Under the pieces are notes generated by a model, which had not been told where the DNA came from, did no database searches, and saw only the letters and a program-made list of their open reading frames with translations. This document shows, piece after piece, positions 2,606 to 26,062 of a stretch of DNA of 38,824 nucleotides. How positions within the stretch are numbered: the stretch's first letter is position 1; each line of letters begins with the position of its first letter. The translations under genes and the position numbers were made by a program. This DNA is from Enterobacteria phage AH67C600_Q5, in sequence record MZ833439.1, one strand, 5' to 3'.

Positions 2606-5257
2606 ATGAGCACGATTAACATCGCTAAGAACGATTTCTCTGACATCGAACTGGCTGCTATCCCGTTCAATACTCTGGCTGACCACTACGGTGAGCGCCT
2701 AGCTCGCGAGCAGTTGGCCCTTGAGCATGAGAGCTATGAAATGGGTGAAGCACGTTTCCGCAAGATGTTTGAGCGTCAACTCAAGGCCGGTGAGGTTGCA
2801 GACAATGCAGCTGCTAAACCGCTGATTACTACTCTGCTGCCCAAGATGGTTACACGCATCAACGACTGGTTTGAGGAAGTGAAAGCTAAGCGCGGCAAAC
2901 GTCCAACCGCTTTCCAGTTCCTGCAAGGAATCAAGCCGGAATCTGTAGCGTATATCACCATCAAGACTACCCTTGCTTGTCTGACGAGCGTTGACAATAC
3001 AACCGTTCAGGCTGTAGCAAGCGCCATCGGACGGGCTATCGAGGAAGAAGCTCGCTTCGGTCGAATCCGTGACCTAGAAGCTAAGCACTTCAAGAAAAAC
3101 GTTGAGGAACAACTAAACAAGCGCGTAGGGCACGTCTATAAGAAGGCATTCATGCAGGTAGTCGAGGCTGATATGCTCTCTAAGGGTCTACTAGGTGGCG
3201 AGGCGTGGTCTTCATGGCACAAGGAAGACTCCATTCACGTAGGTGTACGCTGCATTGAGATGCTCATTGAGTCCACCGGAATGGTTAGCCTGCACCGCCA
3301 AAATGCTGGCGTAGTGGGCCAAGACTCTGAGACTATCGAGCTGGCACACGAATACGCTGAGGCTATCGCAACCCGCGCTGGGGCACTGGCTGGCATCTCT
3401 CCGATGTATCAGCCTTGCATAGTCCCTCCTAAGCCTTGGACTGGTGTAACTGGTGGTGGCTACTGGGCCAACGGTCGCCGCCCTCTGGTACTGGTACGCA
3501 CTCACAGCAAGAAGGCACTGATGCGCTACGAAGATGTTTACATGCCTGAGGTATACAAGGCGATCAACATTGCGCAAAACACCGCTTGGAAAATCAACAA
3601 GAAAGTCCTAGCAGTAGCCAACGTGATAACCAAGTGGAAGCACTGCCCGGTCGAGGACATCCCTTCGATTGAGCGTGAAGAACTCCCGATGAAACCGGAA
3701 GACATCGACACGAATCCTGAGGCACTGACCGCTTGGAAACGTGCTGCTGCCGCTGTGTACCGTAAAGACAAGGCCCGTAAATCTCGCCGCATAAGCCTTG
3801 AGTTCATGCTTGAGCAAGCCAACAAGTTTGCTAACCGCAAGGCCATCTGGTTCCCTTACAACATGGACTGGCGTGGCCGTGTGTACGCTGTGTCAATGTT
3901 TAATCCGCAAGGTAACGACATGACCAAAGGACTGCTGACGCTGGCTAAAGGTAAACCAATCGGCAAGGAAGGATTCTACTGGCTGAAAATCCACGGTGCT
4001 AACTGCGCGGGGGTCGATAAGGTTCCATTCCCTGAGCGCATCAAGTTCATTGAGGACAACCACGATAATATCATGGCGTGCGCTAAGTCTCCTCTGGAGA
4101 ACACTTGGTGGGCTGAGCAAGATTCTCCGTTCTGCTTCCTCGCGTTCTGCTTTGAGTACGCTGGGGTACAGCACCACGGACTGAGCTACAACTGCTCGCT
4201 GCCACTGGCGTTCGATGGGTCTTGCTCTGGTATCCAGCACTTCTCCGCGATGCTCCGCGATGAGGTAGGTGGTCGTGCTGTTAACCTGCTTCCTAGCGAA
4301 ACCGTTCAGGACATCTACGGGATTGTTGCTAAGAAAGTAAACGAGATTCTGCAAGCGGATGCAATCAACGGGACCGATAACGAAGTAGTTACCGTGACCG
4401 ATGAGAACACTGGGGAAATCTCTGAGAAAGTCAAGCTGGGTACTAAAGCGTTGGCTGGTCAATGGTTGGCCTACGGTGTGACTCGCAGTGTCACTAAGCG
4501 TTCAGTCATGACGCTGGCATATGGTTCCAAAGAGTTCGGATTCCGTCAGCAAGTCCTTGAGGACACCATACAGCCCGCTATTGATTCCGGTAAGGGTCTG
4601 ATGTTCACACAACCCAATCAGGCCGCTGGGTACATGGCTAAGCTGATTTGGGAATCTGTGAGCGTTACCGTAGTGGCTGCTGTAGAGGCTATGAACTGGC
4701 TTAAGTCTGCTGCGAAACTGCTGGCTGCTGAGGTCAAAGACAAGAAGACTGGTGAGATTCTTCGCAAGCGTTGCGCGGTGTATTGGGTAACTCCTGATGG
4801 CTTCCCTGTGTGGCAGGAATACAAGAAGCCTATTCAGACTCGCTTGAACCTGATGTTCCTCGGTCAGTTCCGCTTGCAGCCGACCATAAACACCAACAAG
4901 GACAGCGAGATTGATGCCCATAAGCAGGAATCTGGTATAGCTCCTAACTTTGTACACAGCCAAGACGGTAGCCACCTACGCAAGACTGTAGTGTGGGCGC
5001 ATGAGAAGTACGGAATCGAATCTTTCGCACTGATTCATGACTCCTTCGGGACCATTCCGGCTGACGCTGCCAACCTCTTCAAAGCTGTTCGTGAAACAAT
5101 GGTTGACACCTACGAGTCCTGCGATGTACTTGCAGACTTCTACAACCAGTTCGCTGACCAGTTACATGAGTCTCAACTGGATAAAATGCCAGCACTTCCG
5201 GCTAAAGGTAACTTGAATTTACGAGACATCTTAGAGTCAGACTTCGCGTTTGCGTAA
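2606..5257 (+). CDS. 1: Single-subunit T7-type DNA-dependent RNA polymerase (gene 1)
   Basis: 883-aa ORF near-identical to T7 RNAP (MSTINIAKNDFSDIELAAIPFNTLADHYGERLAREQL... ending DFAFA). Confidence 0.98.
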   Translation: MSTINIAKNDFSDIELAAIPFNTLADHYGERLAREQLALEHESYEMGEARFRKMFERQLKAGEVADNAAAKPLITTLLPKMVTRINDWFEEVKAKRGKRPTAFQFLQGIKPESVAYITIKTTLACLTSVDNTTVQAVASAIGRAIEEEARFGRIRDLEAKHFKKNVEEQLNKRVGHVYKKAFMQVVEADMLSKGLLGGEAWSSWHKEDSIHVGVRCIEMLIESTGMVSLHRQNAGVVGQDSETIELAHEYAEAIATRAGALAGISPMYQPCIVPPKPWTGVTGGGYWANGRRPLVLVRTHSKKALMRYEDVYMPEVYKAINIAQNTAWKINKKVLAVANVITKWKHCPVEDIPSIEREELPMKPEDIDTNPEALTAWKRAAAAVYRKDKARKSRRISLEFMLEQANKFANRKAIWFPYNMDWRGRVYAVSMFNPQGNDMTKGLLTLAKGKPIGKEGFYWLKIHGANCAGVDKVPFPERIKFIEDNHDNIMACAKSPLENTWWAEQDSPFCFLAFCFEYAGVQHHGLSYNCSLPLAFDGSCSGIQHFSAMLRDEVGGRAVNLLPSETVQDIYGIVAKKVNEILQADAINGTDNEVVTVTDENTGEISEKVKLGTKALAGQWLAYGVTRSVTKRSVMTLAYGSKEFGFRQQVLEDTIQPAIDSGKGLMFTQPNQAAGYMAKLIWESVSVTVVAAVEAMNWLKSAAKLLAAEVKDKKTGEILRKRCAVYWVTPDGFPVWQEYKKPIQTRLNLMFLGQFRLQPTINTNKDSEIDAHKQESGIAPNFVHSQDGSHLRKTVVWAHEKYGIESFALIHDSFGTIPADAANLFKAVRETMVDTYESCDVLADFYNQFADQLHESQLDKMPALPAKGNLNLRDILESDFAFA

Positions 5258-5263
5258 CGTCAA

Positions 5264-5286
5264 ATTAATATCACTATAGGGAAGAC
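5264..5286 (+). promoter_or_regulatory. Damaged T7-promoter-like sequence at the phi1.1A/phi1.1B position (ttaata-tcactatagggaagac)
   Basis: Promoter-like 3' half tcactataggg preceded by ttaata but lacking the cgac of the -11 to -8 region; only one copy where T7 has two promoters flanking an RNase III site. Confidence 0.6.
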
Positions 5287-5362
5287 CTTAAGGTTTAACT
5301 TTAAGACCCTTAAGTGTTAATTAAAGATTTAAATTAAAGACTACTAATAGAGGACTTTAAGT

Positions 5363-5821: not shown

Positions 5822-6838
5822 ATGATGAACATTAAGACCAACCCGTTTAAAGCAACGTCTTTCGTAGAGTCTGCCATTAAGAAGGCTCTGGATAACGCTG
5901 GGTATCTTATTTGTGATGTAAAATATGACGGAGTTCGTGGTAACATTGTAGTTGACAATACCGCTAACAGTTGCTGGCTCTCTCGTGTATCTAAAACGAT
6001 TCCGGCACTGGAGCACCTAAACGGATTTGATGCGCGCTGGAAGCGTCTTCTGAATGATGACCGTTGCTTCTACAAAGATGGCTTTATGCTGGATGGGGAA
6101 CTAATGGTTAAGGGCGTAGACTTTAACACTGGGTCCGGCCTACTGCGCACCAAGTGGCTCAACAAGAAGAACTTTGAGTTCGACGTTGGAGGTGTACCAC
6201 CACTCAAGGGGTCCAAGGTTGAGTTCGCGTTGGACACCAAACGTCTGAGTGTCCGACTGTATGCTATCCTCCCGCTTCACGTTGTAGAGTCTGGAGAAGA
6301 CTGCGACATCATGACGCTGCTCATGCAGGAACACGTTAAGAACATGCTGCCTCTGCTACAGGAATACTTCCCTGAAATCGAATGGCAAGCGGCTGAGTCT
6401 TACGAGGTTTACGACATGGTGGAACTACAGCAACTGTATGAGAAGAAGCGTGAAGAAGGACATGAGGGTCTCATTGTGAAAGACCCAATGTGCATCTATA
6501 AGCGAGGCAAGAAGTCCGGCTGGTTCAAGCTCAAGCCTGAATGTGAGGCTGACGGTGTAATCCAAGGTGTCAACTGGGGTACTCCTGGTCTAGCCAACGA
6601 TGGCAAGGTAATTGGTTTTAGTGTGCTTCTTGAGACTGGTCGCCTTGTAGATGCCAATAACATCTCTCGCGCCTTAATGGATGAATTTACAGCTAACGTT
6701 AAGGAACACGGAGAGGACTTCTACAACGGACACGCTTGCCAGATTAGCTACATGGAGGAAACACCAGACGGCTCTCTGCGTCACCCATCGTTCGTGTGTT
6801 TCAGAGGAACTGAGGACAATCCTCAAGAGAAAATTTAA
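5822..6838 (+). CDS. 1.3: ATP-dependent DNA ligase (gene 1.3)
   Basis: 338-aa ORF MMNIKTNPFKA...KYDGVRGN (adenylation lysine motif)...; T7 ligase homolog, about 20 aa shorter than T7 as recalled. Confidence 0.93.
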   Translation: MMNIKTNPFKATSFVESAIKKALDNAGYLICDVKYDGVRGNIVVDNTANSCWLSRVSKTIPALEHLNGFDARWKRLLNDDRCFYKDGFMLDGELMVKGVDFNTGSGLLRTKWLNKKNFEFDVGGVPPLKGSKVEFALDTKRLSVRLYAILPLHVVESGEDCDIMTLLMQEHVKNMLPLLQEYFPEIEWQAAESYEVYDMVELQQLYEKKREEGHEGLIVKDPMCIYKRGKKSGWFKLKPECEADGVIQGVNWGTPGLANDGKVIGFSVLLETGRLVDANNISRALMDEFTANVKEHGEDFYNGHACQISYMEETPDGSLRHPSFVCFRGTEDNPQEKI

Positions 6839-6845
6839 TCACAAT

Positions 6846-6876
6846 GGCTCACCGAAAGGTGGGCCTTTCTGCGTTT
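6846..6876 (+). terminator. Rho-independent terminator for host RNAP (TE-like)
   Basis: GC-rich hairpin ggctcacc-gaaa-ggtgggcc followed by tttctgcgttt, immediately after ligase. Confidence 0.75.
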
Positions 6877-6898
6877 AATACGACTCACTATAGGAGAT
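6876..6898 (+). promoter_or_regulatory. T7-RNAP class II promoter phi1.5 (taatacgactcactataggagat)
   Basis: 23-mer promoter core directly upstream of the 29-codon gene 1.5. Confidence 0.8.
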
Positions 6899-7020: not shown

Positions 7021-7281
7021 ATGTTCCGACTTCATTTCAACAAAAGTCTTAAGAATTTCACTGTTCGCCGTGCTGACCGTTCAATCGTATGTGCGAGCGA
7101 ACGCCGAGCTAAGTTACCTCTTATTGGTGACACAGTTCCTTTGGCACCGAGCGTCCACATCATTATCACTCGTGGTGACTTTGAGAAAGCAATAGACAAG
7201 AAACGTCCGGTTCTTAGTGTGGCAGTGACCCGCTTCCCGTTCGTCCGTCTGTTACTCAAACGCATCAAGGAGGTGTTCTGA
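7021..7281 (+). CDS. 1.6: gp1.6 protein of unknown function
   Basis: 86-aa [24 protein letters not shown]..., T7 gp1.6 homolog. Confidence 0.85.
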
Positions 7282-7578
7282 TGGTCTGCATGGCATGTTT
7301 AGAGAAAGACGACCGTTATCCACATACGTGTCAACCTGTAACTAAACCAATCGAAGGTGTCACTAAGCCTTCCCATTACATGCTGTTCGATGACATTGAG
7401 GCTATCGAGGTGATTGCCCGTTCAATGACTCGTGAGCAGTTCAAAGGGTACTGCTTCGGGAACGTACTTAAATATCGCCTACGTGCTGGTAAGAAATCCG
7501 AACTGGCTTACTTAGAGAAGGACATGGCGAAAGCTGGGTTCTACGGTGAACTGTACGAGAAACATAAGGACAAGTGCT

Positions 7579-7589
<11 letters not shown>
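7281..7589 (+). CDS. 1.7: gp1.7 nucleotide kinase homolog, internally shortened
   Basis: 102 aa versus about 196 aa in T7: N-terminal CxxC segment (CMACLEKDDRYPHTC) joined directly to the conserved C-terminal part (IEGVTKPSHYMLFDDIEAIEV...KHKDKCY). Confidence 0.8.
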
Positions 7590-7894
<305 letters not shown>

Positions 7895-9969: not shown

Positions 9970-9993
9970 TTAATTGATTGTTCGCAACATTGA

Positions 9994-11712
<1,719 letters not shown>

Positions 11713-11758: not shown

Positions 11759-12187
11759 ATGAGCACTGACTTAGAGAGACTTGAAAGATTCTTGAAGATT
11801 GATGGCGATTGCTGGCTGTTCACTGGTGGCAGGGCACATGCCTACGGAGTCTTCTGGATGGGCGGTAAGAATCACAAGGCACATAGGGCTGCCTTCGAAC
11901 TTTATAATGGGAGGAAACCTAATGGTGTTATATTACACTCTTGTGATAATCCTTTGTGCTGCAATCCCGCTCATCTATCTGAGGGAACTCAGCTTGATAA
12001 TATGGTGGACATGGTTAGAAAGGGACGCTCGTTAAAGGGTACGAAGAATCCCGCATGTAAGTTTACCGATGAGGATGTCAAGTTCATTCAGGAGTCTACC
12101 ATGAAGGTCAAAGATTTAGCCACTCTATTCGGAGTGACGCGCCAAACAATAACCAAATGGAGGAAACATCATGTTCAAACTGATTAA
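11759..12187 (+). CDS. HNH homing endonuclease between phi4.3 and gene 4.3
   Basis: 142 aa from ATG 11759 (MSTDLERLERFLKIDGDCWLF...HSCDNPLCCNPAHL...); the track ORF 11594..12187 is an artifactual N-terminal extension into gene 4. Confidence 0.85.
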   Translation: MSTDLERLERFLKIDGDCWLFTGGRAHAYGVFWMGGKNHKAHRAAFELYNGRKPNGVILHSCDNPLCCNPAHLSEGTQLDNMVDMVRKGRSLKGTKNPACKFTDEDVKFIQESTMKVKDLATLFGVTRQTITKWRKHHVQTD

Positions 12188-13170: not shown

Positions 13171-15129
13171 ATGATCGTTTCTGACATCGAAGCTAACGCC
13201 CTCTTAGAGAGCGTCACTAAGTTCCACTGCGGGGTTATCTACGACTACTCCACCGCTGAGTACGTAAGCTACCGTCCGAGTGACTTCGGTGCGTATCTGG
13301 ATGCGCTGGAAGCCGAGGTTGCACGAGGCGGTCTTATTGTGTTCCACAACGGTCACAAGTATGACGTTCCCGCATTGACCAAACTGGCTAAGTTGCAATT
13401 GAACCGAGAGTTCCACCTTCCTCGTGAGAACTGTATTGACACACTTGTGTTGTCACGCTTGATTCACTCCAACCTGAAAGACACCGATATGGGCCTGCTG
13501 CGTTCCGGTAAGTTGCCCGGTAAACGCTTTGGGTCTCACGCTTTGGAGGCGTGGGGCTATCGCTTAGGTGAGATGAAGGGTGAATACAAGGATGACTTTA
13601 AGCGTATGCTTGAAGAGCAAGGTGAAGAATACGTTGACGGAATGGAGTGGTGGAACTTCAACGAAGAGATGATGGCCTATAACGTTCAGGACGTTGTGGT
13701 CACTAAGGCTCTCCTTGAGAAGCTACTCTCTGATAAACATTACTTCCCTCCTGAGATTGACTTTACGGACGTAGGATACACTACGTTCTGGTCAGAATCC
13801 CTTGAGGCCGTTGATGTTGAACATCGCGCTGCGTGGCTACTCGCTAAGCAAGAGCGCAATGGATTCCCGTTTGACACGAAAGCAATCGAAGAGTTGTACG
13901 TAGAGTTAGCTGCCCGTCGCTCTGAGTTGCTACGTAAATTGACCGAAACGTTCGGCTCGTGGTATCAACCTAAGGGTGGTACAGAAATGTTCTGCCATCC
14001 GAGGACTGGTAAACCACTTCCCAAGTATCCTCGCATTAAGACACCTAAAGTTGGTGGTATCTTTAAGAAGCCTAAGAACAATGCACAGCGAGAAGGCAGA
14101 GAGCCTTGTGAACTGGATACCCGTGAATACGTTGCTGGTGCTCCGTATACTCCAGTAGAGCACGTAGTGTTTAACCCTTCGTCTCGTGACCACATCCAGA
14201 AGAAACTCCAAGAGGCTGGATGGGTCCCAACCAAGTACACCGATAAGGGTGCTCCTGTGGTGGACGATGAGGTACTCGAAGGAGTACGTGTAGACGACCC
14301 TGAGAAGCAAGCTGCTATCGACCTCATTAAAGAGTACCTGATGATTCAGAAGAGAATCGGTCAGTCTGCTGAGGGAGACAAGGCGTGGCTTCGTTACGTT
14401 GCCGAGGACGGTAAGATTCATGGTTCTGTTAACCCTAATGGAGCAGTTACGGGTCGTGCTACCCATGCGTTCCCCAACCTTGCGCAAATTCCGGGTGTAC
14501 GTTCTCCTTATGGTGAGCAGTGCCGCGCTGCTTTTGGCGCTGAACATCACTTAGATGGACTTACAGGTAAGCCTTGGGTTCAGGCTGGTATAGACGCCTC
14601 CGGTCTGGAGTTACGTTGCTTGGCCCACTTCATGGCTCGCTTTGATAACGGTGAGTATGCTCACGAGATTCTTAATGGTGACATTCACACTAAGAATCAG
14701 ATAGCTGCCGAATTGCCTACCCGTGATAACGCCAAGACGTTCATCTATGGGTTCCTTTATGGTGCTGGTGATGAGAAGATTGGGCAGATTGTTGGTGCTG
14801 GTAAAGAGCGCGGTAAGGAACTCAAGAAGAAATTCCTTGAGAACACCCCTGCGATTGCGGCACTCCGAGAGTCTATCCAACAGACACTCGTTGAGTCATC
14901 TCAGTGGGTAGCTGGTGAACAGCAAGTCAAGTGGAAACGCCGCTGGATTAAAGGACTTGATGGGCGCAAAGTCCATGTCCGTAGTCCTCATGCTGCCCTG
15001 AACACCTTGCTGCAATCTGCTGGTGCTCTTATCTGCAAACTGTGGATTATCAAGACCGAAGAGATGCTCTTAGAGAAAGGCTTGAAGCATGGCTGGGATG
15101 GGGACTTTGCGTACATGGCATGGGTGCAT
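13171..15129 (+). CDS. 5: DNA polymerase (gene 5) exon 1, codons 1-653
   Basis: Family A polymerase near-identical to T7 gp5 up to ...[11 protein letters not shown], then leaves the T7 reading frame; the uninterrupted ORF stops 8 codons later at 15153. Confidence 0.95.
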
Positions 15130-15730
15130 AAACTATCTCATTGTGCACATTAAATCTGGTGAACTCGGTGAAACCCTTCTAGGGCAATACCGAGCCAAGC
15201 CATAGGGAGGATATATGAGAGGCAAGAAGTTAATCCTTGCGACCACAGAGAGTGGTTGTATCATCCCTACGTCACACAAACTTAATACTGATGGTTATTT
15301 CCGAAAGAAGACGAACGGTGTCCTAGAGATGTATCACAGGACAGTCTGGAAGGAACACTACGGAGATATACCAGAAGGGTATGAAGTAGACCACAAGTGT
15401 AGGAACAGGGCGTGCTGTAACGTAGAGCACCTCCAGTTATTAGAAGGTTCTGAGCATACAGTCAAGACAAACAGGGAACGATACGCTGACCGTAAAGATT
15501 CCGCGAAGGAATACTGGTTGGAGACTGGATGTACAGGAACACACTTAGGTGAGAAGTTTGGTGTAACGTTCTCTGCCGCTTGTAAGTGGATTAGAGAGTG
15601 GAAGGCGTAGAGACTATCCGAAAGGAGTAGGGCCGAGGGTGAGATTCCCTCGTTACCCGAAGCGCCAGACAGTCAACTCAAAGGCTGATGATATAGTCCG
15701 ACACTCCTAGCAATAGGAGAATACAGAAAG
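15130..15730 (+). mobile_element. Group I self-splicing intron interrupting gene 5, carrying an HNH ORF
   Basis: 601-bp interruption between codons His653 and Asp654; exon 1 ends in U (15129); candidate internal guide gtgcac at 15143-15148 can pair with exon end gugcau including a U-G wobble at the splice site; intron ends in G (15730); exons join in frame to a 704-aa product. Confidence 0.85.
15215..15610 (+). CDS. Intron-encoded HNH homing endonuclease
   Basis: 131-aa ORF with RBS gggagg upstream; motifs EVDHKCRNRACCNVEHL typical of HNH endonucleases; lies entirely inside the intron. Confidence 0.85.
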   Translation: MRGKKLILATTESGCIIPTSHKLNTDGYFRKKTNGVLEMYHRTVWKEHYGDIPEGYEVDHKCRNRACCNVEHLQLLEGSEHTVKTNRERYADRKDSAKEYWLETGCTGTHLGEKFGVTFSAACKWIREWKA

Positions 15731-15886: not shown

Positions 15887-15905
15887 TTCTATAGGAGAAA
15901 TTATT

Positions 15906-18826: not shown

Positions 18827-19218
18827 CAGATTGTATCGAGTGGACTGGCTACCTCACAAAAGATGGGTACGGCGAAACTCGACTGAATGGTGTCAAGTTT
18901 AGGGTTCATCGTCTAGAATGGGTGAAACAAAGAGGCCCAATACCTGAAGGTCTAGTTGTTCGCCATAAGTGCGATAACCCTAAATGTTACAATATCGAAC
19001 ACCTTGAGCTAGGAACAACTCAGGATAACACTAGAGATAGGGTCTTGAGGAATAGAAGCGCAAAGGGAGTACGTAATGGTAATTCCAAATTAACACCCGA
19101 TGTCGTTCTGGCAATACGTGCAAGTAGTAAGACCCACAAGCTGATAGCCGAAGAGTTCGGTGTATCCAAATCAGTTGTGACACAGATACGAGCACGTAAG
19201 ACATGGAGGCATATCTAA
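18823..19218 (+). CDS. 7.7: HNH homing endonuclease (T7 gene 7.7 position)
   Basis: 131-aa ORF with HKCDNPKCYNIEHL motif and C-terminal HTH-like region. Confidence 0.85.
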   Translation: MTDCIEWTGYLTKDGYGETRLNGVKFRVHRLEWVKQRGPIPEGLVVRHKCDNPKCYNIEHLELGTTQDNTRDRVLRNRSAKGVRNGNSKLTPDVVLAIRASSKTHKLIAEEFGVSKSVVTQIRARKTWRHI

Positions 19219-21816: not shown

Positions 21817-21817
21817 T

Positions 21818-22168
21818 AGACTCTCAACTTGCCGGATTCATCCAATGAGAACATTACTGGCCTTGGGTCCGCATCGGTCATTGAGACTACTCAGGCTAAG
21901 ACTCGCTGGAACCTCTCGCGCTAATACCGATGGTCAGAAACATGGCTTCCCAGAAGGCGTTGGCGGTAACAACAAGGTGGCTAAAATCAACGTTATCGGC
22001 CTGTTCATGCACCGCTCTGCGGTTGGTACTGTGAAACTGCGTGACTTGGCTCTGGAGCGCGCTCGCCGTGCTAACTTCCAAGCTGACCAGATTATCGCTA
22101 AGTACGCAATGGGCCACGGTGGTCTGCGCCCAGAAGCTGCTGGTGCAGTGGTTTTCAAAGCGGGGTAA
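21818..22168 (+). pseudogene. 10: Remnant of the major capsid protein gene (gene 10): about 115 of about 345 codons, in two different frames
   Basis: In the frame from 21820, NENITGLGSASVIETTQAK resembles T7 gp10 NENIEGLGTATVIETTQNK and then hits a stop at 21919-21921; in the +1 frame, [87 protein letters not shown] matches the gp10 C-terminus. No N-terminal half, no start codon, no RBS, no promoter. Confidence 0.85.
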
Positions 22169-22284
22169 TGCATGAAGTGACCTCAACGGTCGCTGCTAGT
22201 ACCGAAGAGGTAAGCATTACTGCCGAAGAGAGTCTAACTCCAGCACAAAAAGCTGCACGTACACGCTTTAATGGGAGGAACTAT

Positions 22285-25329: not shown

Positions 25330-25755
25330 ATGATGACTATAAGACCTACTAAAAGTACAGACTTAGAGGTATTCACTCCGGCTCACCATGACATTCTTGA
25401 AGCTAAGGCTGCTGGTATTGAGCCGAGTTTCCCTGATGCTTCCGAGTGTGTCACGTTGAGCCTCTATGGGTTCCCTCTAGCTATCGGTGGTAACTGCGGG
25501 GGCCAGTGCTGGTTCGTTACGAGCGACCAAGTGTGGCGACTTAGTGGAAAAGCTAAGCGAGAGTTCCGTAAGTTAATCATGGAGTATCGTGATAAGATGC
25601 TTGAGAAGTATGATACTCTTTGGAATTACGTATGGGTAGGTAATACGTCCCACATTCGTTTCCTCAAGACTATCGGTGCGGTATTCCATGAAGAGTACAC
25701 ACGCGATGGTCAGTTTCAGTTATTTACAATAAATAGGAGGACTCAGTATGGCTAG
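25330..25755 (+). CDS. 13: gp13 internal virion protein
   Basis: 141-aa ORF MMTIRPTKSTDLEVFTPAHHDILEAKAAGIEPSF... Confidence 0.9.
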   Translation: MMTIRPTKSTDLEVFTPAHHDILEAKAAGIEPSFPDASECVTLSLYGFPLAIGGNCGGQCWFVTSDQVWRLSGKAKREFRKLIMEYRDKMLEKYDTLWNYVWVGNTSHIRFLKTIGAVFHEEYTRDGQFQLFTINRRTQYG

Positions 25756-26062
25756 AGACAAAGCTAAGAAAGCGGCTTATGACAAGGCTCGCTACAATCC
25801 CCGCGCTAACAAGGACAGACACCTTAGGCGCTCGTATGGGATAACCATAGAAGATTATGATAAAATGTTTGAGTCACAAGGCGGAGCATGTGCCATTTGC
25901 GGTCGCCCTGAAACAGCCAAAGGTCGCTCATTAGCAGTAGATCATTCTCATGATACTGGCGAGGTACGTGGACTTCTGTGTCACGCCTGTAATACCTCCA
26001 TTGGTAAGTTTAGGGAGAACCGTGAGTGGCTTCTTAAAGCTATCAAATATATAGGAGGTTAA
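25748..26062 (+). CDS. HNH endonuclease of the Endonuclease VII-like type, inserted between genes 13 and 14
   Basis: 104-aa ORF with CAICGRPE...AVDHSHDTGEVRGLLCHACNTSIG, the Cys-pair/DH/HxxN pattern of Endo VII-family HNH nucleases; overlaps the gene 13 stop. Confidence 0.8.
   Translation: MARDKAKKAAYDKARYNPRANKDRHLRRSYGITIEDYDKMFESQGGACAICGRPETAKGRSLAVDHSHDTGEVRGLLCHACNTSIGKFRENREWLLKAIKYIGG

Follow-up and report, generated by a model that had tools for sequence, protein, structure and literature searches.

The stretch of DNA analyzed, referred to below as the window, comprises 38,824 nt of sequence record MZ833439.1 (Enterobacteria phage AH67C600_Q5) and represents the genome, whole or nearly so, of a T7-like phage of the genus Teseptimavirus. 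When all T7 proteins were compared with the window by tblastn, T7 order was found to be kept for nearly every T7 gene. The part extending from the ligase gene to gene 2 was matched by 312 phage records, the best match being Escherichia phage HZ2R8 (92.8%).

Gene 1.7 is present as a short allele at 7281-7589 on the plus strand, encoding 102 aa plus a stop codon. Its ATG overlaps the stop codon of gene 1.6 (TGATG), and its ribosome-binding site, AAGGAGGT, is the same as in T7. The gene lies in the orthologous slot between gene 1.6 and genes 1.8/2, where the DNA is collinear with that of T7, and the flanking proteins gp1.6 and gp2 are 95% and 97% identical to their T7 counterparts (tblastn).

Several features of neighboring genes were recorded. 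The 86-aa gp1.6 (7021-7281) matched the whole of the Pfam profile PF06726, "Bladder cancer-related protein BC10" (E 6e-23), an odd label for a phage early protein, and gp1.8 (7579-7701) consists of 40 aa with 41% identity to the T7 protein. The DNA ligase (5822-6838) has 338 aa compared to 359 aa in T7, and the Pfam match of its C-terminal domain is broken into two stretches. Ligases of about 340 aa are also found in phages 13a and HZ2R8, T7 being the longer outlier.

The preliminary description of this DNA had reported a 102-aa gene 1.7 homolog that has lost its central half, with an N-terminal CxxC segment joined directly to the conserved C-terminal region. The open reading frame bears out the stated length. 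The possibility that T7 gp1.7 itself measures only about 100 aa was examined, and the T7 protein (NP_041967) was found to have 196 aa. BLASTP against T7 gp1.7 returned two collinear blocks, in which aa 3-18 of the window protein correspond to T7 aa 21-36 (14 of 16 identical, E 4e-9) and aa 7-100 correspond to T7 aa 102-195 (81% identical, E 5e-54). Alignment of the DNA with T7, 13a, HZ2R8, CICC 80001, and NC-A yielded two clean in-frame gaps relative to T7, one of 54 nt covering codons 2-19 and one of 231 nt covering codons 36-112. What is missing from the middle is not a full half but 77 of 196 residues, in addition to an 18-aa N-terminal extension. This extension (T7 codons 2-19) is absent in most relatives of T7, 13a and HZ2R8 among them.

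The N-terminal module, designated N1, is encoded at 7287-7331 (+) and follows the pattern C3-x2-C6-x8-H15-x-C17 (CMACLEKDDRYPHTC), equal to T7 aa 21-35. Its C, C, H, and C residues are invariant across 20 long-form homologs; the motif resembles a zinc knuckle, and zinc binding is putative. The deletion junction falls between Cys17 and Gln18 (7329-7334, +), with T7 codons 36-112 expected between positions 7331 and 7332. The linker QPVTKP (7332-7349, +), homologous to T7 QPSAET (aa 113-118), stands just before the DUF3310 domain (PF11753; 7359-7544, +; aa 27-88), which forms the conserved core in gp1.7 proteins. This domain is complete, as its Pfam match spanned profile positions 1-58 of 60 with a score of 79 bits (cut-off 24; E 2.8e-22). 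An AF2 model predicts three helices in the DUF3310 region. The profile phrog_2585, "nucleotide kinase", was also matched (E 3.7e-57), but only in its C-terminal half (positions 92-173 of 175).

In contrast to T7 gp1.7, which has both aa 2-19 and the central Cys4 module (aa 36-112), the window protein contains neither, and its C-terminus reads YDS where T7 gp1.7 has YA. A PDB sequence search with the window protein found nothing, NCBIfam held no model for it, and an exact-sequence look-up gave no identical protein on record.

Empty gene slots, nuclease genes and missing promoters

Genes 1.4, 3.8, and 5.3 of T7 had been listed as absent from intervals too short to encode anything. The absences stand, since all three genes appear as gaps in the DNA alignment, T7 gp1.4 and gp5.3 gave no tblastn match in the window, and T7 gp3.8 gave only a weak one, located on an unrelated HNH gene of the 7.7 slot. 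The list was nevertheless incomplete, as T7 gp0.5 and gp4.1 had no tblastn match in the window either (the gp0.5 region of the window is 1215-1290). The intervals are indeed too short in all three cases, but that at 9970-10008 is artificially so, by 32 nt.

The interval between the ligase gene and promoter phi1.5 (6839-6875, +, 37 nt) is occupied by the early terminator TE, with a stem formed by 6846-6853 and 6858-6865. Its hairpin (-15.8 kcal/mol, z -3.5) is homologous to the annotated TE of T7 and was not called by a simple terminator scanner. A phi1.5-type T7 promoter (6876-6898, +; TAATACGACTCACTATAGGAGAT) follows directly, and T7 gene 1.4 corresponds to a clean gap. The same succession of TE and phi1.5 was observed in phage 13a, annotated without gene 1.4, and in HZ2R8, which has no gene 1.4. 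Among 50,697 phage records, gp1.4 was detected in 44, in 41 of them with at least 90% identity to the T7 protein. Gene 1.4 is thus almost confined to T7 itself, and it is T7 that is the outlier.

Gene 3.8 (HNH) is missing from the 39-nt interval between genes 3.5 and 4 (9970-10008, +), as it is in HZ2R8. Exactly between positions 9977 and 9978, the sequence ACTCACTATAGGGAGACCACAACGGTTTCCCT of HZ2R8 is lacking, amounting to 32 nt of promoter sequence. With these nucleotides restored the interval measures about 71 nt, promoter included, which is still too small for a gene.

In the case of gene 5.3, a clean gap was found between gene 5 and gene 5.5 (15887-15905, +), where the remaining nucleotides link the gene 5 stop codon to the gene 5.5 ribosome-binding site. 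This junction is collinear in 13a, which also lacks gene 5.3, as well as in CICC 80001, IME390, 3A_8767, and others. gp5.3 was found in 100 phage records, and 57 of these proteins were at least 95% identical to that of T7.

Two of the absent genes encode nucleases in T7. gp3.8 is an HNH_3 protein (PF13392; 56 bits, cut-off 24.8), and gp5.3 is a PD-(D/E)XK endonuclease (PDDEXK_5, PF11645; 42.1 bits, cut-off 26.1) whose homologs carry a homing endonuclease annotation. T7-like phages carry homing nuclease genes both free-standing and within introns, such as the intron HNH gene in gene 5 of K1F-type phages, and members of these families are found at different sites in the window than in T7. One such gene, inserted after gene 4 (11759-12187, +, 142 aa), encodes an endonuclease with HNH_3 and HTH parts (HNH_3 46.3 bits, E 3.3e-12, cut-off 24.8) that shares 44% identity with T7 gp2.8. 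Near it, the region of promoter phi4.3 deviates from the T7 sequence. Another lies in a candidate group I intron of 601 nt (15130-15730, +), which interrupts gene 5 at the boundary of codons 653 and 654. A full-length match to RF00028 (positions 1-253) at 15120-15720 coincides with this interruption, with a score of 35.4 bits (E 2.8e-7) that is below the gathering score of 50. At the gathering threshold Rfam returned nothing in the window, and the intron surfaced only when an E-value threshold was used. Its HNH open reading frame (15215-15610) reached 61.3 bits for HNH_3 (E 6.6e-17, cut-off 24.8), and the two exons of gene 5 share 99% and 98% identity with T7 gp5 (tblastn). Introns in gene 5 are known from some T7-like phages, e.g., K1F (PMC4925675).

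An extra open reading frame between genes 13 and 14 (25748-26062, 104 aa), where the T7 gap measures 4 nt, matched endonuclease VII families (phrog_2914, E 2.9e-36) and probably encodes a free-standing homing-type nuclease. The HNH protein of the 7.7 slot (18829-19215) is 51% identical to T7 gp7.7.

The slots that are empty (3.5/4 and 5/5.5) or filled here (behind gene 4, within gene 5, and between genes 13 and 14) behave as typical sporadic nuclease-gene insertion sites. A gp3.8-like HNH gene is carried by phage SH5 but not by its siblings SH4 and Dev2 (PMC4925675). Because gp3.8 and gp5.3 are themselves of homing-endonuclease type, their losses and the HNH gains represent one process, and the overall pattern is selfish nuclease gene turnover plus loss of small accessory genes. 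The preliminary description had regarded it as a streamlined region offset by HNH gains. The bases are roughly balanced, as the distance from the start of gene 1.3 to the start of gene 6 is 10,737 nt in the window and 11,029 nt in T7 (about 290 nt apart), but what takes place is turnover in the presence and absence of nuclease genes. The short gp1.7 together with the missing optional genes constitutes ordinary variation, shared with many related phages, and no special streamlining event.

A different kind of gap was observed at the promoters. Consensus class III promoters are gone as clean gaps of 26-31 nt with flanks near-identical to T7 or HZ2R8. The junctions are 17576/17577 for phi6.5, 20824/20825 for phi9, 25303/25304 for phi13, and 32884/32885 for phi17, in addition to 9977/9978 for the phi3.8-equivalent promoter described above. 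The non-consensus promoters phi1.3, phi2.5, phi4.7, phiOL, and phiOR are kept. Between genes 9 and 11, the capsid gene 10 region (21817-22284) contains only remnants, corresponding to T7 aa 147-171 (21826-21900, 64% identical) and aa 258-343 (21905-22159). Absent are promoter phi10, the leader, the ribosome-binding site, Tphi, and two parts of gene 10, one reaching from codon 1 to about codon 146 and the other covering approximately codons 172-257. A similarly short 9-11 interval is present in Yersinia phage vB_Yep_15 (PV596791).

With these promoters and two-thirds of the capsid gene missing, a phage could not be viable. The missing promoter, gene 10, and Tphi pieces are the T7 segments carried by common expression vectors of the pET type and by primers. 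We conclude that vector-like segments were cut out of MZ833439.1, and regard these gaps as a data-processing artefact and not biology. The interval between genes 1 and 1.1 (5255-5362; phi1.1A/B, origin region) is about 80 nt shorter than in T7, and a promoter-like element in it is without 4 nt, possibly reflecting more trimming. Users of MZ833439.1 should not take the missing promoters and capsid gene for biology.

Distribution of gp1.7 forms and selection on the retained parts

A homolog search covering 5.8 billion proteins yielded 953 gp1.7 homologs, and the best 120 cluster representatives of these ranged in length from 84 to 179 aa. Four modules were distinguished in the alignment of the closest homologs: N0 (MGLLDG...), N1 (CxxC..HxC), M (four conserved Cys in about 77 aa), and C (DUF3310). 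The C-terminal DUF3310 is the constant part, while N0, N1, and M are optional. Module M is missing from 60 of the 122 closest homolog clusters, including those of CICC 80001 and NC-A. The central Cys4 module is therefore a feature of the T7 protein that does not define the gp1.7/DUF3310 family, and the shortened gp1.7 is no peculiarity of this phage.

The N1+C layout of the window protein was shared by 33 of the 122 aligned sequences. Among the remaining M-less layouts, some had N0+C or N0+N1+C, some had only C, and some carried other small N-termini rich in Cys. The junctions of the M-less alleles were of at least six types, namely QPVAKP, EPVVNKPQD, CATSxKPQE, SGEK, ESES, and N0 joined directly to QPSAES. 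In one allele (P0044; HTC-SGEK-IEGV) the C-terminus is identical to that of T7, and it is therefore an independent deletion that arose separately in a T7-proper background. Among phage records, the DUF3310 part of gp1.7 was present in 1,261, and a T7-like M was found by tblastn in 200, including 50 records from Klebsiella phages and 6 from Kayfunavirus.

The closest cases for comparison are CICC 80001 (YP_009152471, 105 aa) and NC-A (YP_009820160, 104 aa), two cultured Escherichia phages represented in RefSeq. Both carry the same succession of N1, linker, and DUF3310 in the same slot, both proteins are annotated as "nucleotide kinase", and the window gp1.7 is about 90% identical to them. Its linker QPVTKP is shorter than the EPVVNKPQD or QPVAKPQA of these alleles. 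In contrast, phages 13a and HZ2R8 carry a 179-aa gp1.7 composed of N1, M, and C. In T7-like phages of Citrobacter and Cronobacter, gp1.7 proteins of 107-116 aa have been described (PMC4925675). The window allele is thus one more sequence in a large, well-populated class of short gp1.7 alleles.

Selection was evaluated as dN/dS over 77 DUF3310 codons. The value was 0.013 between the short alleles of CICC 80001 and NC-A, 0.11 between the window and each of these two, and 0.03-0.05 when the window was compared with long alleles, with an overall range of 0.01-0.12. The DUF3310 domain of the short allele is therefore under strong purifying selection. Within 20 long forms, mean pairwise identity was 94.5% for N1 and 96.5% for C, compared to 66.7% for M, in which the four Cys are kept despite the low identity. 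Selection therefore guards N1 and DUF3310 and is lax or diversifying on M.

T7 reportedly makes two forms of gp1.7, of 22.2 and 17.8 kDa, both said to be active, and the C-terminal half is said to be enough for dideoxythymidine sensitivity. The smaller isoform matches a start at Met42, inside M. Given these reported results, the dN/dS values, and the unchanged start context, the 102-aa protein is a putative dTMP/dGMP kinase that, under such strong purifying selection on DUF3310, is probably still working. DUF3310 would represent the catalytic and oligomerising core of gp1.7. Metal-independent dTMP/dGMP kinase activity and assembly into roughly a 12-mer are on record for the T7 protein alone (PMC7693777).

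Origin and significance of the short allele

Module M was also found outside Teseptimavirus. In Przondovirus kpssk3 the protein reads MTEREIQ...C-x5-C-x4-C-x2-C...DUF3310, and in Kayfunavirus EcpYZU01 M is followed by an extra insert and then DUF3310; T3-like SH1 has no Cys4 module and a different N-terminal domain. Since M is present in both Przondovirus and Kayfunavirus, it is older than the genus, and the M-less Teseptimavirus alleles, including that of the window, are derived losses. The direction implied by the earlier wording "has lost" was therefore right.

Taken together, the gene at 7281-7589 is most readily understood as a naturally occurring short form of the T7-group gene 1.7 (dTMP/dGMP nucleotide kinase) that is still functional, a reading to which we assign a probability of roughly 85%. 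M would have been removed from a long ancestor of the 179-aa type by an in-frame deletion of 231 nt, with illegitimate recombination or replication slippage, frequent in T7, as the likely mechanism. No convincing direct repeat flanking the 231-nt deletion was found, and this mechanism is for that reason conjecture. A 9-nt similarity at the deletion, ACCTGTAAC, lies in another frame and was judged to be due to chance.

The short allele may then have spread among co-infecting T7-like phages by homologous recombination. Across the linker, the window DNA agrees best with NC-A and its short allele (15 of 18 nt, versus 9-10 of 18 for long alleles), whereas across DUF3310 the long allele of HZ2R8 comes nearest (168 of 171 nt, 98%, versus 158-159 of 171, 92-93%, for short alleles). 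These affinities would fit recombination among co-infecting relatives, and because the compared segments are short (18-171 nt), they are only suggestive of mosaicism. The retained DUF3310 would act as the catalytic and oligomerising core and the lost M as an accessory part, and the short protein would still supply phage DNA synthesis with diphosphates made from the dTMP and dGMP that the breakdown of host DNA releases.

Selection by the host could also have driven the loss of M, in place of neutral shrinkage. Avs5 is a SIR2-STAND defence protein for which T7 gp1.7 is a reported trigger, the phage protein activating filamentation and NADase activity of EfAvs5 (PMC11897194). Loss or swapping of the Cys-rich modules would then have been selected as an escape from such an immune sensor, removing the surface that the sensor recognises and leaving the kinase core in place. 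The fast evolution of the accessory modules, which are repeatedly lost or swapped, would agree with this. The conserved DUF3310 core is, however, an equally plausible target, and relaxed constraint alone is enough to account for the pattern, so that adaptive escape from Avs5 or a similar sensor is considered unlikely.

Still more doubtful is that the short form is ancestral, with the long T7-type proteins arising by insertion of the central module and no loss having occurred here. Many phages encode DUF3310 as a separate protein with a length of roughly 100 aa (phrog_4472, whose profile has 100 positions), and the M-less SH1 with its other N-terminal domain points in the same direction. Against this, the combination of M and DUF3310 is homologous in three genera, including the MTERE start and the four conserved Cys. 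Moreover, many different short junctions are nested among nearly identical long alleles, and the DUF3310 DNA of the window is 98% identical to that of a long allele.

T7 gene 1.7 can be deleted or replaced and plaques still form (PMC9712115; PMC7697293), in agreement with the preliminary description of the gene as nonessential, and a truncated copy might on this ground be tolerated as a decaying, functionless remnant. We regard this as very improbable, as the frame, the ribosome-binding site, and the translational coupling are all intact. The low dN/dS values extend to the comparison between two short alleles, and the same architecture persists in dozens of clusters as well as in many contigs of about 39 kb.

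That the gaps stem from faulty assembly or sequence scrubbing is scarcely credible and was rejected as the cause of the gp1.7 gap. Consensus promoters, Tphi, and gene 10 from codon 1 to about codon 257 were cleanly excised from MZ833439.1, but everything excised is T7-promoter or expression-vector-like, which does not hold for genes 1.7, 1.4, and 5.3. The sole artefact within the slots considered here is the 32-nt promoter piece between genes 3.5 and 4. Trimming does not explain the gp1.7, 1.4, or 5.3 gaps because the gp1.7 architecture and the 1.3-TE-phi1.5 and 5-5.5 junctions recur in independent GenBank isolates.

The window shows the customary mosaic of optional genes in T7-like phages, and T7 is an atypically gene-rich reference and a poor yardstick for what is "normal" in the gene content of the genus it belongs to. 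DUF3310 with the 17-aa Cys/His knuckle is what selection preserves, and may represent the smallest unit on which the biochemistry and structure of this unusual kinase could be studied. Should the Avs5 connection turn out to matter, naturally short alleles would be ready reagents for mapping recognition by the sensor.
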